Origin: a virus | DNA length: 64,000 nt | IMG/VR virus record: IMGVR_UViG_3300045988_130225 | Span: 35,703-99,702 of that record | Reading direction: 5' to 3' (one strand) | Part shown: positions 24,235 to 62,490 of the stretch, one piece after another | How positions within the stretch are numbered: position 1 is the stretch's first letter | How the letters are laid out: the number at the start of each line of letters is the position of its first letter | The notes under the pieces: generated by a model | Told to the model about the DNA's origin: nothing | What the model saw: only the letters and a program-made list of their open reading frames with translations | The model's database searches: none | Translations under genes and position numbers: made by a program

Positions 24235-25705
24235 GAAAACTTATAAAAAGTTATAAACTTTTATGTTTCATTCCTACTTCAACGAGTATGCTTTCATAAT
24301 TATTTCTAATATACTACTCACAAGTTCTTGCACTCTCCATAGGCGTAAATTCCGAACTAACGTATTCGTACATATTTATATCAACCTGAAATGCTATGAT
24401 ACAGATTGATTTAAAACATTTTCTCCATATCTTTTAAGATTTAAAGATGCTTGATAATCTCTGTCAATCATATTACCGCAATCACATTTATAAACACGGT
24501 CTGATAATTTTAAATCTTTTTTAATTTTGCCACAACAACTGCATAATTTAGAACTAGGAAAAAACCTATCAGCAACTATTACAGTAATATTATTCCATTT
24601 ACTTTTATATTTAATTTGCCGTCTAAACTCATAAAATCCTTGCTGTTGTATAGCTTTGGATAAATGTTTATTTTTCATCATACCTTTTACATTCAAATCT
24701 TCAATACAAATAAAACTTGGTTCTCGCTTTATAATTTCAGAAGTTATTTGATGTAAATAATTCTTGCGAATATTTGTTAGTTTATGATTTACTTTTAAAA
24801 GTTTCTTTTCGCTTTTTACAATGTTACTTGTTTTACAATAACTATCTCCTTTCTTGTTTTTTAAATATTCCCTAGAAACAGAACGCTGTAACCTACGTTT
24901 TTTCTTCTCTAACTGTTTTATCTTTTGTGATTTATTTATATTTTGATATTTATAATTATTAGAACAAATAGCTAAATCTTTAATTCCTAAATCAATACCA
25001 ATTCCTTCTTTATTAGGAATATTTACACTATCTGGATATTCTACACCAACTGTAATCCACCAATTTAATCCGTCAAATTTAATTCTAGGATTATAATATT
25101 TACAATCTGTCGGTATACGATTACGTTCAGCAAGTCGTATCCAGTTTAATTTCTGCTTATTTTTCTTTTTAGATTTTGTAAATCCTTCAACTTTTACATG
25201 AGTTTCAGAAAATTGAATTTTTACACTATCTTGGTAAAAGGAGGGTGTAGATTTTTTTCTGTTTTTAAATTTAGGAAAGTTTGTCAAGCCTTTAAAAAAT
25301 TTCTTATAAGCATCACAAGCATCTTTAATAGCTTGTTTTGTGACATTGTTAGAAATATCATTTAACCAGACATATTTCTGTGTATGTTTCATTTTTGTAA
25401 ATTCTTTTCGCAAATCCGTATCAGATAGAAATTTACCACCATTTTTATAATTTTCTTGTTCTCTTGCTAATGCCCAGTTATAAGCAAATCGAGCAGTGTA
25501 AGCATACTGAAGCAATTTTGTCTTTTGTTTATTGTTTGGAATTAACATTACTCGAATCGTTTTTAACACATTGTTCGCCACCTTCATCTATAAGTTCTTT
25601 TACAAATTTCTTTGCTTTGTCTTATAAAACTTATAAAAATCAACATTCAATTATAACTTTTTATAAGTTTATAATCATTGTTATTCACCTCTTTCAACCA
25701 GTGTT
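24235..25705 (-). mobile_element. TnpB-only IS200/IS605-superfamily element (element 1)
   Basis: tnpB flanked by a perfect 20 bp inverted repeat (24237-24256 versus the reverse complement of 25651-25670) and by 13 nt direct repeats ACTCAC(C/T)GTTACT (24222-24234, 25706-25718). Confidence 0.6.
24394..25587 (-). CDS. tnpB: TnpB RNA-guided nuclease
   Basis: 397 aa; RuvC motifs GIDLGIKDLA / ICIEDLNVKGM / DRDYQASLNL and a CxxC..CxC zinc ribbon. Confidence 0.9.
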   Translation of the reverse strand: MKVANNVLKTIRVMLIPNNKQKTKLLQYAYTARFAYNWALAREQENYKNGGKFLSDTDLRKEFTKMKHTQKYVWLNDISNNVTKQAIKDACDAYKKFFKGLTNFPKFKNRKKSTPSFYQDSVKIQFSETHVKVEGFTKSKKKNKQKLNWIRLAERNRIPTDCKYYNPRIKFDGLNWWITVGVEYPDSVNIPNKEGIGIDLGIKDLAICSNNYKYQNINKSQKIKQLEKKKRRLQRSVSREYLKNKKGDSYCKTSNIVKSEKKLLKVNHKLTNIRKNYLHQITSEIIKREPSFICIEDLNVKGMMKNKHLSKAIQQQGFYEFRRQIKYKSKWNNITVIVADRFFPSSKLCSCCGKIKKDLKLSDRVYKCDCGNMIDRDYQASLNLKRYGENVLNQSVS

Positions 25706-27412: not shown

Positions 27413-29293
27413 TTAGAACACAAGTTGGTCTAACTCATCTAAATTGGTATCTCTTTGTTCATCTACAGCATACTTATCACCTATTAAGGTTGCAATATGG
27501 TTTCCGTAACTCAAAGCTACAATTTTATCCTTTGTCGCACTATTTCTGTTAGGTTCTGATAATTTCAAAATACCGTTATTCCATGTTTGAGTTAAACTAA
27601 TAGCTTCTGACATCATTAATGCAGTTTGAACATATGGCAACTTAATATTAACTTTTTCCTCAGAACTCATAGTAAGATAATTTACATCTTCTTCAAGTTC
27701 TGTTTCAATCGTTAATTCATCTACCAAAAATTCAATCATTTCATTATCTAGGGCTTTCTTTAAATCAAGCCACATTAAACTATTTCGTTCACTTGTACCA
27801 ACAATAGGTATGATACATGGTATAGCTTCTGCATCAACCGTTTTGCCTTTAAGTTCTTGAATTTTAGCGTCTGGAACTATCTGTAAAGCAGATTCATAAC
27901 AAACTGTAAATCCATGTGGATTCCAATTACTTCGTGATGGGTGTTCAAAAGGTTTAGATAACTCTGTATAATAAAGAGTACCACCGCTTCTTTCGTCCAT
28001 TACGATATAATCTGCTTGGTAATCCCAAAAGAACTCTCTAATCTTTTGTTGAAATCCCTCACTATCACTAGCAGGGTGCGTTCCAATATATTCTACTTTT
28101 CGTCTTGTCTTACCATCTTTCATAATGACAGACATACAACCAATAACACTATTATCGTTATCGTTTGTATTGCTGTTTACAAAAGCATAATCAATGAAAA
28201 GTAAACGTTTTTCAAATTCACCTTTAGGTCTGTTACCTAAATCAGTTGACATAAATATATCCATAGGCGTAGGTGGTTTATAGGCTTTTTTTATCACTTG
28301 ATTCTTTCTGAAATCTTCAAGTAAGAAGAAAGCACCCTCTGTTTCACCATACATTTCATTCAAATCTTCTGTTACAAAGTCAATATCTGAATCAAATTCT
28401 TTATCATGCCAGTAATCAGCCCATGTTTTAAGGTTAAATAAAATTGCAAGAAAAATATTAGAAGCAAAGAAATTATATGTATGGTCTTTTCGTATCATAC
28501 TTTGTTGAACAACAAGTTTAAATTCTTGCCAGAAACTTTCACTTCTAAATCTTGCAGATGTAATACTTATAGTTTTACATTGCTCAACCCAACGTGGCAA
28601 TGTTTTTCCATTACTATCTTTATATTCGTCCAACAACGAAAATTTAGATTGTCTTGGGTGAGCCATTTTAGAGAATACAGAATCTATTAAACTTTTCTTC
28701 AAAAGTCTACGTTCTTCATATATAAGCATAGTTGCCCTAGAACCTCTACTGCTGTTCAGACAAGGTAAAACCGTTATCATACTGCCATTTATTTTGCTCA
28801 AATCTACTTCTACACAATCATTATTATACCTAAAAACTATATCGCCATTCTCATAATAATATTGTAAAACTGGTGAAAGTTTCTTGCAAAGTTCATCTTC
28901 TATTTTCTTTTTTACTAGCTTTGTAGCCTGTGGAATAGTAGAAGATGTAATAACAACTTCTGCAAACGGGTATAAACATGAGTGTATGACAGCGAGAAGT
29001 CCTGCAATCATTGACTTAGAAGCACCTCTCGAACAAATCGCATACCAATATTGGCTAATTCCTGCTAAATAAACCATAACATGCTGAAACGGATATAATT
29101 TAATCTTTAATCTTCTTTCAGCATATATATTCCAATTACGTCTATAAAATGTTGTCCATTCCTTAATATTTTTCTTTCTTTGTTCCCACGGTAATCTTCT
29201 GTCAGTCTTTTTCTTTTCTTCTTGTTTTTTCTTTCTTTTTTCCACAAGACTAATAATATCTATATCTTTGTTTTCCTCTAACATAGACATCAC
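27413..29293 (-). CDS. terL: terminase large subunit
   Basis: 626 aa; Walker A-like CSRGASKS near the N-terminus, C-terminal nuclease-like acidic motifs. Confidence 0.8.
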   Translation of the reverse strand: MMSMLEENKDIDIISLVEKRKKKQEEKKKTDRRLPWEQRKKNIKEWTTFYRRNWNIYAERRLKIKLYPFQHVMVYLAGISQYWYAICSRGASKSMIAGLLAVIHSCLYPFAEVVITSSTIPQATKLVKKKIEDELCKKLSPVLQYYYENGDIVFRYNNDCVEVDLSKINGSMITVLPCLNSSRGSRATMLIYEERRLLKKSLIDSVFSKMAHPRQSKFSLLDEYKDSNGKTLPRWVEQCKTISITSARFRSESFWQEFKLVVQQSMIRKDHTYNFFASNIFLAILFNLKTWADYWHDKEFDSDIDFVTEDLNEMYGETEGAFFLLEDFRKNQVIKKAYKPPTPMDIFMSTDLGNRPKGEFEKRLLFIDYAFVNSNTNDNDNSVIGCMSVIMKDGKTRRKVEYIGTHPASDSEGFQQKIREFFWDYQADYIVMDERSGGTLYYTELSKPFEHPSRSNWNPHGFTVCYESALQIVPDAKIQELKGKTVDAEAIPCIIPIVGTSERNSLMWLDLKKALDNEMIEFLVDELTIETELEEDVNYLTMSSEEKVNIKLPYVQTALMMSEAISLTQTWNNGILKLSEPNRNSATKDKIVALSYGNHIATLIGDKYAVDEQRDTNLDELDQLVF

Positions 29294-29442: not shown

Positions 29443-30555
29443 TTAAACATTTAAAATTCTTAAACCCTCATTCAAAATATTAATAGAAGCATTATCATCT
29501 CTATTCAATTTTGAACCGCAGTTAGAACAAATCCAGTATCTAATCTCAACAGGCTTTTTACCACCATTAACACCACAACAATGACAAATTTGTGAAGAAG
29601 GAAAATATCTATTAATTACAGATAATATTTTTCCATACCAAATAGATTTATAAGTCAACATTCTACGAAATTCAGACCAAGAAACATCATTCACATGTTT
29701 ATTACGAACACTGGAATCTGTTTCCCTCATAGACTGTACATCTAAATCTTCAATACAAATAATATCATATTGTTTAACAATATTAGTAGTCAATTTCTGT
29801 AAAAAGTCTTTACGTTGATTAGATATATGTTTTTGTAAATTTGCGACTTTAATTCTTGCTTTATTCCAATTAGAACCACCGATTGCTTTTCTCGATAATT
29901 CTCTTTGTAACTTAGCAAGTTTCTTTTCTGACTTTTCATAAAATCTAGGATTTTTAATCTTAATACCGTCAGATAAGATTGCAAAATCTACAATCCCTAA
30001 ATCTATTCCAACATTTTTATTTGTTTTTGGATATTGTGGAAATTCTATATCAGTACAGCATAATGAACAATAGTAATGTCCGTTTGGTTCTTGTGATATA
30101 GTAGCGTTAAGTATTCTTCCTTGCGGAATTTGCTTATCACGAACTTTTACAAAACCTAATTTTGGAAGCCTGATATGCTTACTTTCAAATCTTATATTAT
30201 TAGTAGTACAACTTGTAGTATAAGATTGATGTCTATTTTTCTTAGATTTAAAATTAGGAAAACCAGTTTGCTTTTTAAAAAGTTTTTGATATGCATTATC
30301 TAAATTTTTCAAAGTTTTCTGTAAAGCATCTTTATCTGGTTCTTTAAGCCATTCATTTTCTTTCTTTAACTGAGTAAGCATTTTACTTGTGTCGTAATAG
30401 TTTAAAGTTTTCTTATTTTCTTTATACTCAGTTATTCTTTTGTCTAAGAAATAATTATAAACATATCTACAGCAACCAAAAGTTTTCTGTATTAATTCTT
30501 GCTGTTTCTTATTCGGATAAATTCTATACTTAAAAGCCTTTTCCAACAATATCAC
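29443..30555 (-). CDS. tnpB: TnpB RNA-guided nuclease
   Basis: 370 aa; VGIDLGIVDFA / IICIEDLDVQSM / NRDDNASINIL and zinc ribbon CHCCG..CSNCG. Confidence 0.9.
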   Translation of the reverse strand: MILLEKAFKYRIYPNKKQQELIQKTFGCCRYVYNYFLDKRITEYKENKKTLNYYDTSKMLTQLKKENEWLKEPDKDALQKTLKNLDNAYQKLFKKQTGFPNFKSKKNRHQSYTTSCTTNNIRFESKHIRLPKLGFVKVRDKQIPQGRILNATISQEPNGHYYCSLCCTDIEFPQYPKTNKNVGIDLGIVDFAILSDGIKIKNPRFYEKSEKKLAKLQRELSRKAIGGSNWNKARIKVANLQKHISNQRKDFLQKLTTNIVKQYDIICIEDLDVQSMRETDSSVRNKHVNDVSWSEFRRMLTYKSIWYGKILSVINRYFPSSQICHCCGVNGGKKPVEIRYWICSNCGSKLNRDDNASINILNEGLRILNV

Positions 30556-30639: not shown

Positions 30640-31111
30640 TATAAAAACCGTAAGTTACTTTAGTTACGTTTTGAGATTGTCGTTCACATAGGTTCGCTAC
30701 TCCTATGCAGTTCTCCAATGAACTTCTTGTACTTTCATACAAGCACAGACTATATCTTATCCCTCACCATTACGTGTTAGGGTCTACCCACTTCCACACG
30801 CTTGTGTGTACTTCCCTCAAGAGGAATAGTCGTTGAAGTTTTCCTTTCGGACTTACCTGCTAATTGCCTATTTTTCAGTGTTTAGGATTTAACCATGCAC
30901 CATTCATTCAATTTTTTCTACTTTCGTCACATTCACGCTTATACCCTTTAAGGTATTACGTTGTAGTTTGAATGACTTTAAGGTTTCCTAGCAATTCAAG
31001 TAGTATTGGATGCTAAAAGCATCGCTACGTGCAAGTTTCCCTACACGCTAACTATTTCGTAAAACGTTCGCTTACTCACGACTAAAGTTATGAATATGCG
31101 TTCACGATTTA
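30640..31111 (-). ncRNA. group I intron ribozyme portion
   Basis: GC-enriched and ORF-free; GGGATAAGATATAGTC core signature (reverse complement of 30748-30763), P8-like CTTGTATGAAAGTACAAG, and GACCCTAACACG resembling the Tetrahymena P7/P3 strand. Confidence 0.6.
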
Positions 31112-31956
31112 ATCAAATTCTTTACAGCAGAAACTACATACTTAAACCAGTCAGCTTCAATATTACAGAAATCCTTATATTTTTCCAAATCTTCACATTC
31201 ACAAGGTTCAGTGTTTTCGATTTCCCAAATCTGATGTTCAAGCATTTGTTCAGTTAAAGTCTTTTCTTTCTTCTGAGTAAAGTTATCAAGTTTTAAAGTT
31301 TTCATTAATTTTAAAACCATATCTTGTTCTTCTTTACCAGAATTACCCATGTCCACTTCTTTTTTATATCTTAATTCAGCAATACAAAGTTTACGATACA
31401 AACTCTCTTGTGCAGGTGTCAACTTAATATCATCAGTGTAGAATCCCCATCTATACTCAAGATAGGCATAATCTTCATCTGATTGCTCTCCCCAATCCAG
31501 AATTAAATCTTGTATATTTAATTTACGTTGTGTTTCTTCGTCATTGGAAGTCATAGAACTTCTATCTACATCTGTTTGTCCAAAACAATCCCATTTATCT
31601 GATTTTTTCTTTAAAGCTAAAAAAGTTACATAATACTGTCCCCAGTAGTTATATGTACTAGACAAAGTACCTTCTTCTTTTTCTTTTTCAACTTTTTCCA
31701 TCAGACCATCATATACTTTTTGTATAAACGGTATTCCTATCTCAGCACATGTTGACCATAAAGCTAATTTAATATCTCCATATTTACTGTAATAGTTTTG
31801 ATAAATCGTTTTACAACAAGTGGTACAATAAGGAACTACTTTATTTGCATGGTTTGGATTGTCAGATTTATAAAATTTCTTAATATCATAAGGTCTGTTG
31901 CAACGAATACAAAATGATTCTGTTATGGGTCTTTCTTTTCTTATAATGGTTGCCAT
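31102..31956 (-). CDS. terminase small-subunit-position protein (unspliced form)
   Basis: ORF 31102..31992; ATG at 31956 after a GAGGGAA RBS; N-terminal Cys4 zinc-ribbon motif; located upstream of terL. Confidence 0.4.
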   Translation of the reverse strand: MATIIRKERPITESFCIRCNRPYDIKKFYKSDNPNHANKVVPYCTTCCKTIYQNYYSKYGDIKLALWSTCAEIGIPFIQKVYDGLMEKVEKEKEEGTLSSTYNYWGQYYVTFLALKKKSDKWDCFGQTDVDRSSMTSNDEETQRKLNIQDLILDWGEQSDEDYAYLEYRWGFYTDDIKLTPAQESLYRKLCIAELRYKKEVDMGNSGKEEQDMVLKLMKTLKLDNFTQKKEKTLTEQMLEHQIWEIENTEPCECEDLEKYKDFCNIEADWFKYVVSAVKNLIKS

Positions 31957-31998
31957 AACATTCCCTCGTTTCCAACAAAAAAAGAAAGACAATATTAA

Positions 31999-32517
31999 TT
32001 ATTTGCCTTTCTTTTTCTCTACGAACTCGACATAATCTGGTTCAAGCATTTCAGCTAATCTTTTTTGCTTTCTTACTCTTTTTTGCTTTTCTATCATTAC
32101 TTCTCTTTGAAATTCTGGCTTTACAGCTTCTTTTATTTTAGCCGCAGATTTATTTTTTACTTTTAATGACGGTTCAAGGTTGTTTAAATATCCTTTGAGA
32201 TATTCAGAGGTTTTAAATCTAACCATGTACGTCAATGGTATCATAACATTATTTTTCTGTTTCGTCTGAATATTATATACTCTCTTGATTGCACCACCGC
32301 AAGTGGAAATCTTAAAAGTACCAATATTAGGAATATTGAAATAACCGTTATTTTTTATTTCATCTGCCATAATTTCAATAAAAGTTTTCATACATAACTT
32401 AGCCATTTCAGTTGTGAAACTTGGTTTAGTTTTCTTAACTGAAATGGCTATCAGTTCTGCGAGTTCGTTAGGGCTTAAAGACTTAACAATGACACCATCT
32501 TTATTAGGTCTTGCCAT
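31999..32517 (-). CDS. HU/IHF-fold DNA-binding protein with C-terminal basic extension
   Basis: 172 aa; ..IGTFKISTCGGAIKRVYNIQT..MIPLTYMVRFKTSEYLK.. HU-like beta-arm pattern. Confidence 0.5.
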   Translation of the reverse strand: MARPNKDGVIVKSLSPNELAELIAISVKKTKPSFTTEMAKLCMKTFIEIMADEIKNNGYFNIPNIGTFKISTCGGAIKRVYNIQTKQKNNVMIPLTYMVRFKTSEYLKGYLNNLEPSLKVKNKSAAKIKEAVKPEFQREVMIEKQKRVRKQKRLAEMLEPDYVEFVEKKKGK

Positions 32518-32537
32518 AACTTGTTACTCCTTTATGA

Positions 32538-32891
32538 TTACTCTACAAAAGGTGCGTCCTGTGTCTTTTCCTTAACGGTTTCTCTTAACTTCTTAGACAT
32601 CTTAAATACTGGTTTAGTATAATCTGGGGTTGCACTTAACTGTCCAACTTCGCCAGTAGCAGGATTGATAATACCAGTTCTTTCTGGTCTGCCCTTAATA
32701 GTGGTGAAATCAATCTTTCCAAAACCGTTCATATCAAACTTCTTACCAGAAGCAATGCAAGTAGCGGCAATCTCATAAAATGCAGTCAGAACAGCCTTTG
32801 TGTCCTTCTGAGTAGCCTGTGCCTTGTATGCTACCATCTTTACTAACTCTGCGGTGCTAACCTTAGATACCTTAATTGCTTTCTTTGCCAT
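32538..32891 (-). CDS. HU-like DNA-binding protein
   Basis: 117 aa; ..GFGKIDFTTIKGRPERTGINPATGE....KPVFKMSKKLRE.. canonical HU pattern. Confidence 0.75.
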   Translation of the reverse strand: MAKKAIKVSKVSTAELVKMVAYKAQATQKDTKAVLTAFYEIAATCIASGKKFDMNGFGKIDFTTIKGRPERTGIINPATGEVGQLSATPDYTKPVFKMSKKLRETVKEKTQDAPFVE

Positions 32892-33934: not shown

Positions 33935-36430
33935 TCAACCATTTTCATGTAATTTCTTTAAATTTTCTATTATTAAATCACCGACAACAGCCCAACAAAA
34001 ATATTTATTCTTATTCTGTCCATAACATAAGTCAAGCATAATATTAACAAGTCTATCTTTGTTTGGACAAATTTCTTCTGCTCTTGCTCTAAATTCATGC
34101 TGTATGCTCATAACTCTTGTATTTGCTTCTTCCGTACTTAAATTTTTCTCAATCACAATTTTCTTAAACTGTTTAATACGTTTAATGTATTCTTTTTCAA
34201 GATTTTCAATATCTTCTCTTGTTTTAGGTGAACTTCTTTGAATAGGAGATTTAAGAAATTCATAATTAAAACCCTTGGATTTAAGTTCTACCACTCTGCC
34301 ATCAAATTCACTTTCCACATATCGGCAAATTCGGTTCATAGTAGAACCAGAAATGTTTACTGGCATTTTTATATCGTACCATTCTAAAAACTTTTGCTGT
34401 TCTTCTGTAAGATTTTTCTTTTCTTTTAATTCATTTACTTTACAACCATAAAGCATAACACATTTAAGGTCACAATTTTTTATATAACTATCATAATCTT
34501 TTTTTAAAGAAGAATAATTATAAATAAAATAATAAGGCTTTTTATCTGTTACGATTGCTTTATCTAAAGGTGTGGTACACAGCTTTGAAACGTACCAATA
34601 CTTAGGCATTTCCTTACAAATAACTCCCTTCAGTTTGTCCAGAGTTGACTGTTGATATAACTGTCCACACAAAATACGTTTTGATAATTCTTTATATTCA
34701 TTTGTATTTTCATTAAATAAAGCTAATTTATCTATTTGTGCCGATACTCTATTAGTGATTGTTCCAACTTCTGAGCCTAAGCCCATACGGTTACTTTTTC
34801 TAATATCGTTTCTTTTAACAATTCTTTTCTCTCCTTTACGTTGTACACAATCAATAGCATTTGTATATTTATAAGCACTTAAAAGTACGTTATTATTAGT
34901 AGAATATATAGAATCACTATCAAAATCGCTCCCGTTCAATGCCATACATATAGTGTCCCAATCATTTAGCACCATCATTGTATTAGAATATTTATACCAT
35001 TCTTGGCATTTTTTATCGTTATTTACTTTCATTTTCCTAATATTATTATGTGAAGTCATAGGAGAACGAAAACAAACTACCTCATTCACACCTTTATCTA
35101 TCCAATATTGTGAATATATTTCGTTAGCTTTAAGTAAACCAGTAACCTCTAATCCATATATACTCTGCATTAAAGCATAAGAATCACCCATAACTATCTG
35201 ATAATTCCCTTCAACTTTCAGTTTACCTATCTTAGCTTGATTAATCTTTTTCTTAATCATTTTATTGATTCTGTCAATCACATAAGGGTCATTCATCATT
35301 CTCTCATCTAAATATAAGGCTTGTGCATAATCTTTGGTTTTAGTTTTTTCACCAACACCCAAAAATTCTTTTGTTTTCTGGTAATCACCACCAAACGCCA
35401 TTTTCAGCCAATCAACAGTAGGTTTACATAATTCTACAATCTGTTCATCTGTCAATTCATAACTTTGCAAATACTGATAATTTGTTTCTCTTGTATCTTC
35501 CAACTTTTTAGGTGTTACTTTTGTAGCAGAAAACCTATAACCATTTTCATAATAACATTTGTGGTATTCTTCCCAACTAGAATAATTATCCCATAACTTA
35601 AGACTGGATTCAGTAATAATCATATCCACATCTCGAATATCTCTTTCAGTACCCCAAATATCTTTTACTTTATATCCCTTACCAACTTCCTCAGCAAATT
35701 TTATAATCTCAAAGACATTCAACATACCTTTCATATAAGCATTTCTTAAACAAATACCACTTGGCAAATAATCAAGACCTAATTTATCAGCAACTCTTTG
35801 CATATATTCTGGTGTACAAAGATTCATGCCGTCACTGCCGTTGTTTTCTAACTCTACACCAAATTTTTCCTCAACGATAGGTTCATCTGTTTCACTATCA
35901 TCAATCCTAACCACATCACCCTTAAATTTAGTGATACAATCTCGTACAACCAATACAGAGCGTGGTTCTGGTATCTCAACGGACGCTGAATAGGTCAGAG
36001 CAATATAAGCCTCTAATTTAGCCGGTATAGCCTTGTAATCTTTCTTCCTACCACAATCAGTCCTTTTAATTAACTCTGGTAAAATATCTTCTCTCACAAA
36101 CAATAAAGTATTATTTTTAAGACCACCAGTAGTTCCAACAACCCACAAAAACCTTTTACCATTTAAAATCACACCAGTTTTAGACGTAACTTTGTCATAG
36201 TCACTCATTGAGGAAATCTCCACAGCAAGCATTAAATCCGTCATATCTTGCTTGTATTGTTTGTTACCTATAATTGTAATTAAATCTATCAGTCGAAATG
36301 CTTGTGAATCAAATAAGTCAATCAATTCATCTAAACGAACCGCCAACTCTTTGGATAAAGTAATTTGCCAGTTGTTTATTCGGAAACGTTCAGATGAAAC
36401 TTTGAAAATCTTTCTACGTTTATTTTGCAT
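33935..36430 (-). CDS. YonO / RdRP-like single-subunit (two-barrel) RNA polymerase candidate
   Basis: 831 aa; VVCFRSPMTSHNNIRKMKV followed by NGSDFDSDS mirrors the R.P...gD and GxDxDGD motifs of cellular RdRPs and SPbeta YonO. Confidence 0.6.
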   Translation of the reverse strand: MQNKRRKIFKVSSERFRINNWQITLSKELAVRLDELIDLFDSQAFRLIDLITIIGNKQYKQDMTDLMLAVEISSMSDYDKVTSKTGVILNGKRFLWVVGTTGGLKNNTLLFVREDILPELIKRTDCGRKKDYKAIPAKLEAYIALTYSASVEIPEPRSVLVVRDCITKFKGDVVRIDDSETDEPIVEEKFGVELENNGSDGMNLCTPEYMQRVADKLGLDYLPSGICLRNAYMKGMLNVFEIIKFAEEVGKGYKVKDIWGTERDIRDVDMIITESSLKLWDNYSSWEEYHKCYYENGYRFSATKVTPKKLEDTRETNYQYLQSYELTDEQIVELCKPTVDWLKMAFGGDYQKTKEFLGVGEKTKTKDYAQALYLDERMMNDPYVIDRINKMIKKKINQAKIGKLKVEGNYQIVMGDSYALMQSIYGLEVTGLLKANEIYSQYWIDKGVNEVVCFRSPMTSHNNIRKMKVNNDKKCQEWYKYSNTMMVLNDWDTICMALNGSDFDSDSIYSTNNNVLLSAYKYTNAIDCVQRKGEKRIVKRNDIRKSNRMGLGSEVGTITNRVSAQIDKLALFNENTNEYKELSKRILCGQLYQQSTLDKLKGVICKEMPKYWYVSKLCTTPLDKAIVTDKKPYYFIYNYSSLKKDYDSYIKNCDLKCVMLYGCKVNELKEKKNLTEEQQKFLEWYDIKMPVNISGSTMNRICRYVESEFDGRVVELKSKGFNYEFLKSPIQRSSPKTREDIENLEKEYIKRIKQFKKIVIEKNLSTEEANTRVMSIQHEFRARAEEICPNKDRLVNIMLDLCYGQNKNKYFCWAVVGDLIIENLKKLHENG

Positions 36431-45211: not shown

Positions 45212-46467
45212 TAGAACAGTAAGCCAAAAACCCCCATTAGCTTTAGCTGATGGGAAGAATAGTGGAGAACAATTAACTGAGAGTGAGGTGATTATAGATG
45301 TTGGTAGCATACAAATACAGATTGTATCCGAATAAAGAACAACAAGAATATTTTGCTAAATGTTTTGGGTGTGTACGATTTATCTATAATCGTATGCTTT
45401 CAGATAAGATTGACTATTATAAAGAAACAAAGAAAAAGCTGAATAATACACCTGCTCAGTACAAGAAAAAGTTTGAGTGGCTAAAAGAAGTAGATTCACT
45501 TGCATTAGCAAATGCTCAAATGAATTTGCAGACAGCCTATAACAATTTTTTCAAACGTCCAGAAGTGGGTTTTCCAAAATTCAAAAGCAAGAAGAATAAT
45601 CACTTCTCTTATACTACAAATAATCAGGGAGGAAACATTTATGTGACAGACCGATACATAAAACTCCCTAAGATTGGACTTGTTAGAGTTCGGAAACATA
45701 GAGATTTTGAAGGATTAATTAAGTCTGTTACTATTTCTAAAAGTCCGTCTGGTAAATACTTTGTTTCAGTATTAGTAGACCAAAAAGATAAAGAAAAATT
45801 AATTCCAAACAATAACCAAATTGGAATTGATTTAGGTATTAAAGAATTTTGTATTACTTCTGATGAAGAGATGATTCAAAATCCAAAGTTTCTTAGAAAG
45901 TCTGAAAAGAAATTAAGAAAATTACAAAAGGATTTATCTCGTTGTCAAAAAGAAAGTAAAAATAGAGAAAAATGCAGAATTAAAGTCGCAAGACAACATG
46001 AAAAGATTGCAAATCAACGTAAAGATTTTCTACATAAGTTATCTAGGCGATTTATTGATGAAAACCAAATCATTGCATTAGAAACTTTGAAAATTAAAAA
46101 TATGATGAGTAATCATAAATTAGCAAAATCAATAGCAGATGTATCATGGTCTGAATTTGTAAGACAATTAGAGTATAAGGCTCAGTGGTATGGTAGAGAA
46201 ATCGTAAGGATTGATACTTGGTATCCATCAAGTCAGATATGCTCTAATTGTGGTCACAAAGACAGAAGAAAGCCATTATCAGTAAGAGAATGGATCTGTC
46301 CTAATTGTGGTACACATCATGAAAGGGATATAAATGCAGCTATAAATATTCTTAAAGAAGGTTTGAGAATTAAAACGGCAGGAACTGTCGAGATAGTCTA
46401 AGTAAACTTGTGCGGTTACGCATATTGATTAGAAAATCCAATGAGTTTTAACTCATGGGTAGTTCAG
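45212..46467 (+). mobile_element. TnpB-only IS605-type element (element 3); left boundary uncertain
   Basis: Similar subterminal hairpins at both ends (CCCATTAGC-TTTA-GCTGATGGG at 45232-45253; CCAATGAG-TTTTAA-CTCATGGG before 46459); right end GGGTAGTTCAG parallels element 2. Confidence 0.55.
45298..46401 (+). CDS. tnpB: TnpB RNA-guided nuclease
   Basis: 367 aa; [11 protein letters not shown] / [12 protein letters not shown] / [11 protein letters not shown] and zinc ribbon CSNCG..CPNCG. Confidence 0.9.
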
Positions 46468-46861: not shown

Positions 46862-48455
46862 ATGAAAAACAGTAAAAGGATTGTATCGAAGATACAGAAG
46901 AATGTTCAAAAAGAAATAGTGTTAGTATCAAAAAATAGAGAGAGGAAATGGCAACTCGTTAATTTTTGTGAATTTGACAAATATGCAACAAAATCATACT
47001 GTGCCATTCATGGTGTTGATGAATCATTGAATCTTGGTGATATTACAAAGGTTGATGAAACAAAGCTTAAACCATTTAATATGATTTGTGGAGGTAGCCC
47101 GTGTCAAGATTTTTCTATAGCAGGTAAGCAAAAGGGTTCTGTTTGGACTTGCAAAGAATGTGGACATGAATATAATCCATTGACGGTACATTGGCTAAAA
47201 AGAGATAAGTGTCCATGCTGTGGAAGTAACAATATTGAAAAAAACTCGTTCATCTCTTTTAGTAGAGTATTTAAGAGTAATAAGAGCGAACAAACCCAAT
47301 TTTGGTTTGTATGAAAATGTTAAAAATATTGTTGGAAAACAATTTAAAGAAACTACTTTTAAATTATTTACTGATGAATTGAAAGAATATGATTATAATG
47401 TGTATTGGAAAGTTTTAAATGCAAAAAATTACGGTATTCCGCAGAATAGAGAACGTGTTTATTTAATTTTTATCAAGAAAGACTTGGATAATGGCAAGTT
47501 TAAGTTTCCAGAGCCATTTGATAATGGTGTTCGATTGAAAGATATGCTTGAAGATAAAGTAGATGAAAAGTATTATATTTCAAAAGATAAAATTGAAAAA
47601 TTTTTAAAGAATTTTAATTATGATTTTAGTAAAAATCAGTTAGGCAGTATTGAAAATAATAATTCTCAAACCAATAGAGTATATAATATAGATAAAGAAT
47701 CACCAACTTTAAACACTTGTTCTGGTGGTAATCATCAACCAAAAGTTTTATTAGGAGTTGATAAAACTTTTAATAACCCAAAAATTATAGATGAAGCTAA
47801 TTGTTTATGTGCAAGATATGATTGTGGTTTTACTAAAAGAGTTTCAGAAGGCACAGCAGTTTTAGAAAGTATTCCAATTTTAGTTTCAAAGAAAGGCGAA
47901 AAGTTTGATAAAAAGATTAATGAAGCAAATACGTTATTAGCCCGTGATTATAAAGGGTTTGGAAATCAAACTATGAACGCAGTTATTCAAATCCCGCAAG
48001 CAACTAAAAAAGGCTATATTGAATGTGAGCAAAATGGTGTTGCAGATTTATCATATCCAACTTCTACTACAAGAAGAGGGCGTGTACAAGAAAACGGAAA
48101 TATTTCACCAACTCTTACAGCATCAGAAACAAATATTTGTAAGATAGAATCATTGATTAGAATTAGAAAATTAACACCAAAAGAATGTTTTAGACTTATG
48201 GGTTTTTCTGATAATGATTTTGAAAAAGCTGAGAAAACGGTAAGTAATTCACAATTATATAAACAAGCAGGTAACTCTATTGTTGTAGATGTGCTTTATT
48301 ATATATTAGTTGAATTATATAAAGCAATGCCATATCTGTTCGATGATTTGAAACTAAGTAGTTTTTTCTCTGGAATTGGAGCGTTTGAGATAGCATTGGA
48401 TAGATTATATAAAGGAATAAATTCTGGAAATTTTATAAGTCTACAAGTAGATTAA
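46862..48455 (+). pseudogene. C5 cytosine DNA methyltransferase, frame broken at an A7 tract; motif order rearranged
   Basis: Frame 1 (46862..47314) has GGSPCQDFS; frame 2 (47220..48455) has TRSSLLVEYLRVI, ENVKN, QNRERV, TRD-like SPTL modules and AGNSIVV; frames join if A7 (47238-47244) is read as A6. Confidence 0.75.
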
Positions 48456-49416: not shown

Positions 49417-49432
49417 CACGTTCACATTTTTA

Positions 49433-49475
49433 AACCCCTTAGTAACACAAAGTACAAGGGGTTCTTTTTTATTTT
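49433..49475 (+). terminator. intrinsic terminator
   Basis: AACCCCTT...AAGGGGTT stem followed by CTTTTTTATTTT. Confidence 0.7.
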
Positions 49476-50399
49476 CAACCAAGTTATCACATTCAGAACA
49501 AAATTCCCCTATATCTACTTTCTACGGACTGTTACCACCCTAAATCAGAATAAATCCCCCTAACTCAGAGCACGAGATTTCGCCCTATATTGCAAAACAC
49601 TACATGAAGCCCAAGGGAGTAATTATTTGCAATGTCCTATAAATTGGACACCTAAAACACTAATGAAAATCATTTAAGACTTGAAGCATTGCAATTCGCC
49701 CACTCGAAAACGCCTACGCAAAAACCATTACTTTTCGACTATAGGGGGTCAAGGCACTTTTCGCCAATAGTTCTTTTTAGAACCATTTTTCCGTTATTCA
49801 TAAATTTTAATAACGAACAGTGAAATGACAAAACACCTGTCTTTACAACTGACAAGACAACTGACAAGACATTTCTTAATTTTCCACTATGGTTATGATA
49901 TACCACTCTCCCCTAAATTTAACTACCTGTGGTCACTCTTATATACCGTTACAACTCATTTAAACGCCCCTAGAAACGATTTTAATAGATAAGACGATTA
50001 AGTTATCATACGCAGACTAAAACGCCCACATTTGCCTTGTACTGTTTCATATAAAAAGTGACACCTTATCATGCTCCTAAAACCTCTACAGAAATAATAG
50101 TCAAAATTTAAACCAGTATACCGGTATACGGCGAATGACCCCCTTGTTCCCCAGTATACAATTACCCCCCTCTATCAGATAATATATTATCTATTGTAAA
50201 GAGTAGATGACTAAGAGATAGAACTACAAGAATTATAAGAATAGATAAGAGATAAGAGGATTGAGAACTGGATAATATGTTGGTTATTACATACTCGTAA
50301 ATGTTGCAAAATCCCTATTCTGTGTTATCACCTACACCTATAAAACCACTAGGCATAAAGAGCAAAATGATACACACATTTTCGTCATATATATCTTAA

Positions 50400-50820
50400 A
50401 TACTCTTAGACGATTTACTGTGTGCTATTGTTGTGAGAAATGATATGAAAAGTATAGGTGGTTAAGGTGGTGTGAAAATGGTCTGGGATAGGTATGGGGA
50501 ATTTGGTTATCGTGCGTGTGCGTTATATATAATTATATATAGTGGGAGTTAATAAGTAGGAAACGGTGAAGTGATGAGAGATGAAAAACTAAGGATTGAT
50601 ATGAACATAAGGATTTAGGAATATAGAGGGCAGAAGGATATATAAGGATATATGATATAAGGTGAGAGTGGGCGTGAGTGGGTGCGGAGATAATGATGAT
50701 AGTTGGGATAGAGCAATAGCAATGGGGGATAGGGGGTAACAGGAGCAATAGATAGAGAGATAATTGAAATACTATGAATATTGGGTGAATATTGAGTTGT
50801 GGGAGTGTGCGGTGTATCAG
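50400..50820. repeat. C-depleted (G/A/T) block
   Basis: Manual count, e.g. 50461-50520 has 25 G versus 3 C; recurring GGGATA, GGTATGGGG, GTGCGG, TATAAGG motifs. Confidence 0.8.
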
Positions 50821-50997
50821 CTATTCCGAGTATGCGAAAATCGTATATACGAATTGTCTGAAAATACCCCGGTTATACGTGACTAACAGAATGAGTGTTC
50901 GACTAGCCCAGAGGAGGGGGCGATATACTCTGCCTGCATAGGTTCGGAACGTCAAAAAACATGGCTATAATAAATCATTATAGACACGTTTTGCATG

Positions 50998-51015
50998 TTA
51001 TCAATATATTGATAA
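50998..51015. repeat. perfect 18 bp palindrome in the core between the two skewed blocks
   Basis: TTATCAATATATTGATAA equals its reverse complement. Confidence 0.95.
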
Positions 51016-51149
51016 TACTATACGTTCAAAACTAATGGTTTTTATTGATACTTGAACACTTTTAACGTGATTGATATATTGGAAGTATTATATTATGTTA
51101 AAAAAATGACGTAATAAGAAGGTACTATATATGTGATACCGCATACCAT

Positions 51150-51650
51150 TAGCTAAGTTATCTTCCTTTATGTTTCTTCTTTCCCCTCTTCTCTTCATAC
51201 GCTCTCAATAGTCCGCATGAAACATTGTATATACTTATTATATCTATATTATTCCATCATCCTCTTTCTCCATCTTCCCATATCCTACTATACCATCTTC
51301 CATTCTTTCACCTATCAACCCACTTTCCATCCGTTCATATATCCCACTTATACCAGATCCATTTCAATTCCATTTCCATTTCCACCTGTCATCATTCCCC
51401 ACACTTCCACATCTTACAATTAATCCCATGTCTTATCATATCTCATATCACATCTTCTGTTATCTCATACCACCGCACAACATACCCATACCATCTTACA
51501 TAGTAACAATAACCACATACATAGTATTCAATACTACTTGTAATCTTACTCATATCCCATATCATGTTTTACAATACTATCTCATATCCCTATTAATCCA
51601 CTATGTTAATATGTTACCCATAAACCCATTATCCATATAGGTTAATATAT
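51150..51650. repeat. G-depleted (C/A/T) block
   Basis: Manual count, e.g. 51241-51300 has 0 G versus about 21 C; recurring CCATCTT, CCCATA, TATCCC motifs. Confidence 0.8.
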
Positions 51651-51722
51651 AAATCATAAACCCTATAACATACTATGTTATTGAATTATAACATAATTAT
51701 ATGAGTTGTTGTTATTGATATC

Positions 51723-51808
51723 ATTTTAGGCAATACTTTTATCGCAACGGCTCAATTTTAGTCAATACTTAAAATTTGTACGAAAACTATTGGCATTTTA
51801 GCAATAAT
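51723..51808 (+). repeat. three iteron-like direct repeats ATTTTAG(N)CAATA
   Basis: 51723-51737 ATTTTAGGCAATACT, 51755-51769 ATTTTAGTCAATACT, 51795-51808 ATTTTAGCAATAAT. Confidence 0.7.
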
Positions 51809-52643
51809 GATACATACTAAAACGTTTAATATATATATTATATATGGCACGAAAATGTATGTGTTATTGTTTGAAAAATTGCTACAATTTTCATTATGTT
51901 AGCACAACTCCAATTTTTTGGTTTACATAAGGTGTGAATATTCAGACGCAATTTGAATTTTAGAATAATTTAGCTGTACTTATTAATAAGTGGCGTTTTT
52001 AATAAGTGTATCTAATAATAAATGGCAAGCGATCCAATGCCGGATTTATGTAAATGCCGTTTAAAGCCCTTAGAAGCCGTTTTAAAGCGTTTTAGGGCTT
52101 TCAAAGCATATTTTATCATTAAATGTTTTTCCAATCGAAACTATGTTATGTGGTATTGAAAACTACGTTATTATCTGACAATTTGGCACTCATTAGTGGT
52201 AAGTGCTAATAAGTAAACATATGTGAATTATTGCCATATATGAATAGTAAATAAATGTTTATTAATGGGCTTCTAACATAAAAGCAAAAACACCTATATA
52301 AGCAATGGGGCTTGTATGTATGCTTACTTATATATATGTATATATGCATGGTGTTTTATATGGGACTTGCATATGCTTTTATATAGTAGTCTGCTTTTTT
52401 TGTAAATCCCTTATATATAGGAAGTAATACAATCGAATAGATGTTTTTATGAAAAATGTATAAAAAAATATATGTTTTTTGGTAGTTTTTACCATTGAGT
52501 ATATATATACTTTTTGCTATACTTGCATTATCAAATGAATCAAATCATTTCCATATCGGAAATATTAAGAATATACGTTCTGTATATTCCAAAAAAAATA
52601 AAATTAAACATTAAATCATACATATAAAAGGAGAAGAAAAACA

Positions 52644-52937
52644 ATGAAAAAAATATTAAAAGCAAGTACAAAGAGTGGCGCGCGTTGGATCGTATCCGCA
52701 AAAAAAGAAGAAGGCTATAGACTTTCCGATATTTATGAAAGCTATAGCATAGGCAAAGAAAACGCCTATAACGATTGCTTCAACAAATATGTTTCTGCTG
52801 AAACTTCAAAAAATTTCCGTATTTTTTCTCATAATACTTTTGGTTTTTCTGTAGCTTGGGAGGAAACCATAGAAAATGAAGAATATTTACATATTGAAAC
52901 ACCACAAAACACATATATTGTGGCTTTAAATCAATAA
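52644..52937 (+). CDS. hypothetical protein
   Basis: 97 aa; AAAAGGAGAAG RBS. Confidence 0.6.
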   Translation: MKKILKASTKSGARWIVSAKKEEGYRLSDIYESYSIGKENAYNDCFNKYVSAETSKNFRIFSHNTFGFSVAWEETIENEEYLHIETPQNTYIVALNQ

Positions 52938-61585: not shown

Positions 61586-61626
61586 CAAAAATGTAATACT
61601 TTTTATAAGAAAATGTAGCATAGGTA

Positions 61627-61655
61627 TTGACAAAAATCAGTATCTATGCTATTAT
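61627..61655 (+). promoter_or_regulatory. sigma70-type promoter
   Basis: TTGACA, 17 nt spacer, TATTAT. Confidence 0.5.
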
Positions 61656-61686: not shown

Positions 61687-62490
61687 ATGACAAATATTAC
61701 AAGATTTTTAAATGGTTTAAAGAGTGAACATACAAAGGTAGCATACGAGAATGATTTAAAACAGTTCTTTGATTTTACTGGTAAAGACGAAACTGAAATC
61801 ACTTATGCTGATATTTACGATTACAAAGTGTCTATGAGTGAGTACAGCAGTGCTACAACAGCACGTAAACTGACAGCTATTAAATCCTATTTCAATTTTC
61901 TTTCTGACATGGAATTTATTTCTACTAATCCTTCTGCTAAAATCAAAATTCCAAAAGTAAAGAATCACGAAAAAGAATATATCCCTATGGACGAAGCAAA
62001 GAAATTATTAGGCGTTGCTAAATCCCCTAGAGATAAAGCTATCATTGCATTATACCTTTCAACTGGTATGCGAGTTAATGAACTGGTAAATTTAACTGTA
62101 GAGCAGTATGAGAAAGATGAAATCGTATTCGTTGCTAAAGGTGACAAGGAAAGAAAAGTATATCTTAATGATAAATGCAGAGGATATATTGACGAATACT
62201 TAAAGGTTCGTAAAGATAGTGGTATTGATAATCTGTTTGTAAGCAATTATGGCACTCCTATGCGACATGATTTAATTGCTAAAATGTTAAAGAAAAACGC
62301 TAAAAAAGCAGGGATAAGTGAGGATATAACTAATCATAGTTTACGCCATTCGTTCATATCGGCTGTAACTTTAACAAGTGGTGTTGCTGTAGCAAGAGAG
62401 GTTGTGGGGCATGTAAATCTTTCTACGACCCAGAGATATGTGCATAATACTGAGGAAACTATTAAAAATGCCATGGTATCTGTTTTTTAA
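61687..62490 (+). CDS. Xer-like tyrosine recombinase (short, no arm-binding domain)
   Basis: 267 aa; SAM-like N-domain, GMRVNEL (Arg), HSLRHSF (H-x-x-R), GHVNLSTTQRYVH (His...Tyr). Confidence 0.8.
   Translation: MTNITRFLNGLKSEHTKVAYENDLKQFFDFTGKDETEITYADIYDYKVSMSEYSSATTARKLTAIKSYFNFLSDMEFISTNPSAKIKIPKVKNHEKEYIPMDEAKKLLGVAKSPRDKAIIALYLSTGMRVNELVNLTVEQYEKDEIVFVAKGDKERKVYLNDKCRGYIDEYLKVRKDSGIDNLFVSNYGTPMRHDLIAKMLKKNAKKAGISEDITNHSLRHSFISAVTLTSGVAVAREVVGHVNLSTTQRYVHNTEETIKNAMVSVF

Follow-up and report, generated by a model that had tools for sequence, protein, structure and literature searches.

We analysed a 64,000-nt stretch of viral DNA (IMG/VR record IMGVR_UViG_3300045988_130225, positions 35,703 to 99,702; hereafter the window), focusing on a gene-free region at window positions 49476–52643 and on its centre at 50.43–51.68 kb, where two blocks of opposite base skew (the arms) enclose a core of mixed composition (together, the module). 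The phage is a gut siphovirus of ~100 kb with a tape-measure protein and a portal. On its left, the region is bordered by an intrinsic terminator-like hairpin followed by a T-run (49433–49475, + strand; AACCCCTT...AAGGGGTT then CTTTTTTATTTT) that closes the upstream rightward operon, and on its right by a ribosome-binding site (RBS; AAAGGAG) and an ATG at 52644. Both borders had been named in an earlier sequence-only reading of this DNA and are visible on direct reading; the stem start was confirmed at 49433, and an automated hairpin scan missed the structure because its loop exceeds 8 nt. The same reading had described about 3.2 kb without an RBS-led open reading frame (ORF), which all coding tests bore out. 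The largest ORFs (92, 71 and 70 amino acids) all fall within the skewed blocks, whose base composition makes stop codons rare; no ORF of at least 30 amino acids within 49476–52643 has a Shine–Dalgarno-like leader; and no single stop-codon reassignment gains a long ORF outside the skewed blocks, so that the alternative decoding scheme once named as a possible undoing of the claim yields no genes. Codon periodicity was absent from the open frames of the blocks (p = 0.79 and 0.62), as compared with p ≤ 0.02 in five of six neighbouring genes, and the arm frames have no 3-nt spectral peak. No Rfam 15 covariance model matched at its gathering threshold (two chance-level matches at E ≤ 5), and a folding scan of both strands gave no widespread signal, only three local hairpin-level ones; the suggestion that the region templates unusual non-coding RNAs thus gained no positive support. 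We take the centre of the region to be a cis-acting DNA element, neither a gene nor a structured RNA.

The left arm (50430–50809) is G-rich and nearly C-free on the + strand (A 34.7%, C 3.9%, G 34.2%, T 27.1%; 15 C in 380 nt; 69% purine), and the right arm (51158–51676) is C-rich and nearly G-free (A 29.1%, C 29.7%, G 3.9%, T 37.4%; 20 G in 519 nt), with a longest G-free run of 105 nt (51228–51332). The almost C-free block at 50.4–50.8 kb and the almost G-free block at 51.15–51.65 kb of the sequence-only reading are thereby confirmed. Measured over 300 nt, the GC skew of the arms (+0.79 and −0.85) marks the two extremes of the window, in which coding regions reach at most about 0.65. In both arms the G-rich strand points 5′→3′ at the core (+ in the left arm, − in the right arm), an orientation bias that is absolute; the layout is its own reverse complement, so that either strand, read 5′→3′, enters through a G-rich, C-free arm and leaves through a C-rich, G-free arm. 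The inward strand is 69–77% purine. Near-exclusion of one base leaves the outward strand without G–C self-pairing (folding energy about 0), and the G-free strands are essentially unstructured (minimum free energy 0 to −6 kcal/mol per 160 nt). Inward transcripts would be G-rich and C-free, a composition that favours R-loops, and outward transcripts would be ideal Rho-loading RNA.

Several descriptions of the arms were tried and rejected. They are not a diverged inverted repeat (k-mers common to the left arm and the reverse-complemented right arm are no more numerous than expected from composition) and not an array of a single motif (after dinucleotide correction only weak right-arm motifs remain, for example GGAAGATGGTAT). 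Neither helical nor 3-nt periodicity was detected in the arms. The translocase guide motifs tested, GGGNAGGG, GAGAAGGG and GAAGAAG (KOPS, SRS and lactococcal motifs, which may not be the host's own), are nearly absent from the arms of the window, with counts at or below the composition prediction. G-quadruplexes were dismissed as a conserved feature, canonical motifs being absent from the window and from its relatives of the same genus-level group and present in one arm only of the more distant Enterocloster phage PMBT24. Chi-like end protection was set aside because the Chi sequences known to us all contain C, which is nearly missing from the G-rich strands.

The module was compared within two genus-level groups: that of the phage studied here (group A) and the Enterocloster phages, including PMBT24 and CB457P2 (group B). 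The region is internal to five IMG/VR contigs of 62–106 kb, and a search with a 23-nt core motif recovered 16 further true loci in metagenomes and one in a metagenome-assembled genome; the layout is present in all 16 of the former and in the latter, with enough flank. Across 15 group-A sequences, column conservation is 0.81–0.99 in the left flank (49417–50466; above the neighbouring genes), 0.30–0.84 in the left arm (with many indels), 0.80–0.94 in the core islands, 0.31–0.75 in the right arm and 0.85–0.95 in the right flank (51667–52166); the downstream genes have only 65–80% identity to the window in the five IMG/VR relatives. The region is therefore strongly conserved among relatives, the opposite of the poor conservation that the sequence-only reading had named as grounds for dropping it. 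Group B has almost no DNA similarity to the window here, the only matching islands being 50836–50870 and 52046–52182, and the small flanking genes are unrelated between the two clades. The Enterocloster phages nevertheless carry a gene-free region of ~3 kb with the same order of parts: a C-free arm of 256–327 nt, a core of 312–325 nt and a G-free arm of 290–360 nt. Their arms are the most divergent parts (41–66% identity), yet have skews of 0.9–1.0, and over both clades arm skew is kept at 0.8–1.0 despite sequence turnover. In PMBT24, one arm has a 218-nt run without G and the other a 215-nt run without C, and in this complete genome the arms of the module are the only blocks with |skew| > 0.65. 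The core motif occurs once per locus and the module once per genome, and the module was never lost in the 28 loci examined. The constraint falls on the composition of the arms, not on their sequence. The module is absent from the Thomasclavelia phage TR-TP1 (large terminase subunit 30% identical) and from the 10 kb around two distant DUF262 homologues. Megablast of the window against the phage collection gave no match, GenBank holds no near-identical phage and blastn of the core against plasmids was likewise negative; together with the Rfam result, this is the outcome of the database comparison that had been proposed for the region.

The mixed core (50810–51157) consists of conserved islands, at least three of which resemble protein sites, and swappable cassettes. 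Island 1 (50812–50872) reads CAGCTA, a gap of 14–15 nt and then AAAATCGTATATACGAATTGTCTGAAAATACCCC; a 12-bp palindrome (TCGTATATACGA) and a single TCWGACAAT 9-mer lie within it. No other sequence of the module is conserved so widely (91–94% identity between the two clades), and as a search pattern it retrieved the 17 further loci. Island 2 (50957–50991) is a palindrome with 15-nt arms, AAACATGGCTATAAT-AAATC-ATTATAGACACGTTT, whose central ~23 bp are invariant in the group-A sequences shown, even where the neighbouring DNA has been replaced; one locus (L034) has matching changes in both outer palindrome arms. Its group-B counterpart, AAAAAGCGTCCATAATACATATTATGTACACTTTT, occupies the same relative place, and the 24-bp centre of that palindrome is inverted between PMBT24-type and CB457P2-type phages in otherwise collinear DNA (L006 8062–8095 compared with the PMBT24 junction, L008 146–173). 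We regard island 2 as a candidate site for a dimeric protein, possibly the Xer-family recombinase of the phage. The adjoining cassette (50992–51096; ~100 nt, AT-rich, GC about 27–33%) is occupied by unrelated sequence in all relatives examined, and in L003-type relatives 50880–50950 is replaced as well. The 18-bp perfect palindrome that the sequence-only reading had highlighted in the core does exist (TTATCAATATATTGATAA, 50998–51015) but is not the conserved element, because it lies in this cassette. Also within the cassette are the best sigma-70-like matches, 51004→50977 (− strand, 11/12) and 51052–51080 (+ strand, with TG), both directed outward; the number of promoter-like sites in the region is not significantly above that in shuffled sequence. 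Island 3 (51097–51157; ATGTTAAAAAA-TGACGTAATAAGA-N6-TATATATGTGATACCGCATAC) abuts the right arm on its inside and is conserved in group A.

Outside the arms lie two conserved non-coding flanks. The left flank (49476–50429; GC skew −0.2 to −0.4) contains CCCCTA motifs, six copies of YAAAACRCC on the + strand and perfect palindromes at 50116 (14 bp) and 50177 (16 bp). The sequence-only reading had noted palindromes at 49.5–50.2 kb, and they are present there; the C-tract motifs noted alongside them are clustered locally (four CCCCTA on the + strand, 49506–49972) but are not enriched across the window. The right flank (51677–52200) carries five YAAAACRCC on the − strand and a hairpin-rich segment, with local folding z-scores down to −3.2 on the + strand, and includes an island kept across clades (52046–52182; 73–82% identical to the Enterocloster phages). 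The YAAAACRCC copies thus form mirrored clusters (six at 49593–50026 on the + strand, five at 51792–52358 on the − strand), which occur in group A only; no such clustering was found in PMBT24. A further mirrored element of ~20–37 nt, ACATTTTCGTCACATATAT, lies outside each arm and faces inward (50366–50402, + strand; 51832–51868, − strand); it is present in all group-A sequences that cover the site and is only marginally beyond chance as an inverted repeat. The 'iteron-like' direct repeats of the sequence-only reading did not hold up: ATTTTAGNCAATA is present in two exact copies only and is not enriched in the window. The 9-mer TCWGACAAT, which may be a regulator site, occurs seven times in the window against 1.8 expected (none of 100 shuffles reached seven), at 845, 31858, 48960, 50853 (core island 1), 52174 (within the cross-clade island of the right flank), 52946 and 58450; in PMBT24, five of nine copies lie within about 3 kb of the module. 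The stretch 52417–52643 (+ strand) probably supplies promoter and leader to the operon that begins downstream with the gene at 52644: it includes a conserved block (52417–52516) and a promoter-like site (52495–52523; TTGAGT-17-TATACT with TG) 120 nt before that gene. Most likely, the conserved outer flanks hold regulatory sites and promoters for this long early/replication operon.

The only experimental datum that bears on function comes from PMBT24, for which PhageTerm gave a peak (tau > 0.1) on one strand only and a pac-type classification (PMC11035940); the authors chose the pac site as the start of the genome map (PMC11035940). The end-to-start junction of the PMBT24 record is continuous with CB457P2, so that the record is a simple circular permutation, and its start and end have no repeat in common. 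The junction, ...CCCTCAAAATATG|AGATACATTCACCC (in longer form ...AGGGTAATGGCGAACCCTCAAAATATG|AGATACATTCACCCAC...), lies no more than 5 nt from where the G-free arm begins and 253 nt after island 1, and is followed on that strand by a G-less run of ~215 nt; the chance of a terminus falling at most 5 nt from one of the four arm edges in 100 kb is about 4e-4. It indicates that a DNA end lies where an arm borders the core. Among the roles proposed in the sequence-only reading, packaging or a genome end is the only one with outside evidence, namely this terminus at the homologous arm edge, and we tentatively interpret 50.43–51.68 kb as a packaging-initiation or genome-end locus, an assignment to which we give somewhat less than an even chance. 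The presence of a single module per genome is as expected for a pac site, and the evolutionary pattern—conserved core islands between arms held by composition—fits protein-binding sites plus composition-defined arms. In the window, the packaging or terminus cut is predicted to fall in island 3, at roughly 51150 ± 60, a position inferred by analogy because the motif that precedes the terminus in group B, AGGGTAATGGCGAACC, is absent from the window.

The presumed enzyme acting on the module in trans is the large terminase subunit (TerL; 27413–29293, − strand), which is 63% identical to PMBT24 TerL by tblastn and has more distant matches to SPbeta-like and other terminases. Candidate architectural factors are encoded at 31102–32891 (− strand): a 296-amino-acid protein in the small-terminase position and two HU/IHF-like proteins (31999–32517 and 32538–32891; Pfam Bac_DNA_binding, 7.9e-10 and 4.7e-15). 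The order recurs in PMBT24, where two genes for histone-like proteins and one for a hypothetical protein precede that for TerL, and it is from gene order alone that we assign the 296-amino-acid protein as a putative small terminase subunit (TerS). In the mechanism we propose, TerL, the putative TerS and the two HU/IHF-like proteins would assemble on the core islands, and terminase would cut at the boundary between core and arm, from which headful packaging would start. The arms would be polarity devices acting by base exclusion, inward-facing barriers that protect the core and mark orientation: a polymerase or fork heading towards the core would meet a G-rich, C-free non-template strand, giving R-loops and a block to transcription that would shield the terminase–core complex. 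After the cut, the G-rich strand would be the 3′-ending strand at both new DNA ends.

Several points weigh against assigning packaging to this locus. The terminus is carried over by homology from a phage of the other clade, and AGGGTAATGGCGAACC, which lies just before it in PMBT24, was not found in the window. A one-strand peak could also come from a site-specific nick, from a fragile site, or from a library hotspot at a boundary of extreme composition, and the direction of packaging is not certain from the PMBT24 paper. The module is separated from the terminase genes by about 22 kb, whereas many pac sites are within terS or adjoin it. Of 18 metagenomic contigs, five (loci L032, L035, L038, L039 and L044) stop within 350 nt of the core motif, but at positions too inconsistent to define a clean end; the breaks probably arose during assembly of the hypervariable arms and are not physical ends. 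The arms contain no repeated motif that would suggest an array of TerS sites and show no helical periodicity, and the role proposed for them is one that we infer.

The genes around the module include, upstream, TnpB and a split C5 DNA methyltransferase and, downstream, a GmrSD/DUF262 protein and, further on, a sigma factor. A 267-amino-acid Xer-family tyrosine recombinase is encoded at 61687–62490 (+ strand; Pfam Phage_integrase plus a SAM-like domain). It matches NCBIfam XerA, XerC and XerD at about 1e-49 to 1e-51, all below the curated cut-offs, has XerA and XerD as its best relatives of solved structure, and is a candidate partner of the core palindrome; PMBT24 also encodes a Xer-family recombinase, annotated 'Xerd'. 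Directly upstream of the recombinase gene is a 36-bp imperfect palindrome (61616–61651), which may be an operator. The cytosine methyltransferase, ~1 kb upstream of the module, is split between overlapping ORFs (46862–47314 and 47220–48455, + strand) that cover positions 23–83 and 84–251 of the Pfam profile; a frameshift, an intervening element or a sequencing error could account for this. There are two TnpB (IS605 OrfB/Cas12f-like) genes, at 29443–30555 (− strand), between the TerL gene and the putative TerS and HU-like genes, and at 45298–46401 (+ strand). In the Enterocloster phages CB457P1/P2 and CB473P1–3, the TerL gene matches in three separated pieces with an I-TevI-like intron endonuclease annotated between them, and appears to be interrupted by introns. 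A full-length RAGATH-18 RNA lies among the head genes (24271–24343, − strand; 70.6 bits, gathering score 44.9). An 831-amino-acid protein (33935–36430, − strand) has no Pfam, NCBIfam or PDB sequence match; in length and gene-order position it corresponds to the PMBT24 gene annotated 'RNA-dependent RNA polymerase', an annotation also used in TR-TP1, and it is probably a YonO-like single-subunit RNA polymerase.

Other explanations account for parts of these observations. The arms could belong to a transcription-primed replication origin, an alternative that we consider unlikely, in which G-rich, C-free inward transcripts form lasting RNA:DNA hybrids (as in ColE1, T4 oriF/ori(uvsY) and mitochondrial CSBII), their 3′ ends prime two leading strands across the core for bidirectional replication, and the one-strand read terminus is an RNA–DNA junction or a nick. 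The inward strands, G-rich and 69–77% purine, have a make-up known to promote R-loop formation, the AT-rich core (GC 27–33%) contains palindromes, and the module lies directly upstream of the replication-gene block; PMBT24 is annotated with a helicase, primase, PolIII alpha, SSB and RecA and with no origin-binding initiator, as for T4-style initiation; and the conserved inward-facing element stands outside both arms in group A, with a promoter-like site (51724→51696) pointing into the right arm. However, promoter-like sites are not significantly more numerous than in shuffles, canonical G-quadruplex motifs are absent from group A, and the published reads are from CsCl-purified virions, in which replication intermediates are not expected. 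For the replication origin suggested in the sequence-only reading, skew also counts against one of the classical type: the cumulative GC skew of PMBT24 has its minimum at about 10 kb and its maximum at about 52 kb, at switches in gene orientation and not at the module, and the local change from + to − is the polarity of a terminus, that of an origin being − to +. Quite unlikely, in our estimate, is a divergent control region in which core promoters fire outward through G-free, C-rich, unstructured Rho-loading (rut) leaders, which would terminate immediate-early or antisense transcripts on either side in the manner of lambda pL/pR with tL1/tR1; in an alternative form, the arms would encode two functional G-less non-coding RNAs. 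Outward RNAs would be 30–47% C and 2–4% G with a folding energy near zero, and the putative outward transcripts would have at least the 70–80 nt of C-rich, G-poor, unstructured, untranslated RNA that defines rut; rut sites are, moreover, defined by composition and not by sequence, matching the hypervariable arms. The best sigma-70-like matches of the core point outward both ways, the next ORF on either side in group B points away from the core, and the module stands in front of a long early/replication operon. Against this, those promoter matches belong to the variable cassette, which relatives do not share, the downstream operon has a conserved promoter-like site of its own 120 nt before its first gene, and the left neighbours in the window point inward; a DNA read terminus on the arm edge is left unexplained, and Rho-type terminators would be expected at several operon ends, whereas the module is unique in the genome.

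The encoded recombinase raises another option, that the core palindrome is a Xer/dif-type site for multimer resolution or cyclisation (as with P1 Cre-lox), with arms that mimic a chromosome terminus and whose polar G-rich sequences (KOPS/SRS-like) steer a translocase; we find this improbable as the main function, and it could coexist with a pac site. Both clades encode the enzyme and have a palindrome with 5–7 nt between 15-bp arms at the same relative core position, L034 shows joint change of the two outer palindrome arms, and sublineages differ by an inversion of the 24-bp centre. The group-B site, ...CATAAT-ACAT-ATTATGTACAC, matches Bacillus subtilis dif at 20 of 28 positions, and the + to − skew polarity is that found around dif (for the dif sequence and polarity, PMC3025954). 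All characterized guide motifs of the KOPS, SRS and lactococcal types share with the arms a purine-rich, C-free make-up. Yet matches of 19–22 of 28 arise in shuffled 64-kb sequences of the same composition, so that the resemblance to dif is not significant; the group-A site is not among the best dif matches of the window, in which palindromes with 14-nt arms are common (about 17 distinct); and GGGNAGGG, GAGAAGGG and GAAGAAG do not exceed the composition expectation in the arms. Plasmid BLAST matches of the site are chance half-matches and not Xer sites, the read terminus lies about 140 nt from the palindrome, and the phage is reported to be virulent. As for the partition or centromere role once proposed, no ParA or ParB was found among the window proteins scanned or in the PMBT24 annotation. 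We consider it very improbable that the module has no function and that its skew is a by-product of local mutation (deamination of an exposed strand) in a dispensable spacer. The arms do evolve fast and tolerate indels, but deamination would raise T and leave G, whereas G is 34–42% against about 15% and T is not raised, being below the genome average in group B; a skew of 0.8–1.0 is held in two clades, the arms always flank the core islands, and the module was never lost in 28 loci. Hidden protein-coding genes, under an alternative code or as low-complexity proteins in the stop-poor arms, are scarcely conceivable: the G-free strands do have stop-free frames of 139 and 95 codons, and the PMBT24 annotators called small ORFs there, but the long frames are a result of base composition, the arms show no periodicity, no RBS-led starts and free indels, recoding gains nothing elsewhere, and on both sides the standard code yields closely spaced genes. 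Hidden genes and junk are both effectively excluded.

Known systems resemble the module in part. The pac site of SPP1 sets a precedent for a three-part layout, with pacL and pacR flanking the cleavage site pacC (PMC6316719), and like the module is a single cis site per genome; the one-sided read termini at the homologous PMBT24 site were read as headful packaging. An involvement of DNA-bending proteins is likely: the HU/IHF-like genes here stand beside the terminase genes, and at P1 pac, another headful site, IHF and HU stimulate cleavage. SPP1 pac differs in spanning about 270 bp in or next to terS, with short repeated boxes and intrinsic bends, as compared with a module of about 1.25 kb, about 22 kb from the terminase genes, whose flanks show a mirror-symmetric near-exclusion of one base and no repeated box. 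The T7 concatemer junction, at which pausing of RNA polymerase is tied to DNA maturation, shares with the module the order of terminus, G-poor tract on the outgoing strand and early promoters. Its tract, however, is an array of CCTAAAG heptamers of about 150 bp with moderate skew, and the junction is not mirror-skewed: only the SRL side is G-poor (GC skew −0.5 to −0.64), and the SRR side (near 0) is not its mirror image. No heptamer-type array was found in the arms, and no start/end repeat in the PMBT24 record. A chromosome terminus (dif with KOPS/SRS) likewise has G-rich then C-rich polarity, a central palindromic recombinase-type site and an encoded Xer-family recombinase, but extends over megabases with a skew of about 0.05–0.2, compared with about 1 kb and 0.8–1.0 here, where the known guide motifs are not enriched in the arms and similarity to dif is at chance level. 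R-loop origins share a G-rich non-template strand upstream of the would-be start of DNA synthesis and, as here, no dedicated initiator is annotated; ColE1 RNA II, T4 and CSBII, however, have one short G-rich element and a defined promoter, whereas the module has two mirror arms of ~400 bp, no verified promoter and no support from whole-genome skew. The early control region of lambda has a central operator/promoter region with C-rich, G-poor Rho-loading RNA on either side and composition-defined terminators; the module differs in having no repressor or Cro genes in its core, arms that far exceed known rut sites in length and are more extreme, and an arm edge to which a DNA terminus maps.

Taken by kind, the layout is that of a pac or genome-end site, but mirrored arms that exclude one base appear to be without a published parallel among packaging sites: a targeted search of the literature turned up no comparable layout, and the one paper found on this phage family (PMC11035940) has, by a search of its terms, no mention of GC skew or a non-coding region. 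For the arms themselves, we suggest, as a possibility that is on balance unlikely, a new kind of cis-element set by base exclusion on one strand with no motif ('composition-encoded polarity'), which would form a mini-terminus around the packaging and recombination core. Such arms may do one or more of three things: face the core as barriers that depend on orientation and act through R-loops or on transcription, prime replication, or guide or halt a motor or nuclease that tracks along one strand. They may serve even non-canonical polymerases, such as the YonO-like enzyme of the phage, while their sequence remains free to evolve.

If the packaging assignment is true, it would fix the start of packaging for a whole family of ~100-kb gut Lachnospiraceae phages in which termini data have so far come from one member only, and would be of use for genome orientation, the prediction of transduction and phage engineering. 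The arms indicate that selection can hold 300–500 bp at no more than 4% of one base per strand, mirror-wise and despite sequence turnover, which points to a physical process with strand polarity, for instance the formation of R-loops, the loading of Rho or the movement of a tracking motor or nuclease. The phages of E. bolteae, which are in culture, offer a small and tractable model, and paired blocks of opposite skew provide a simple signature by which similar hubs may be sought in other viral genomes.

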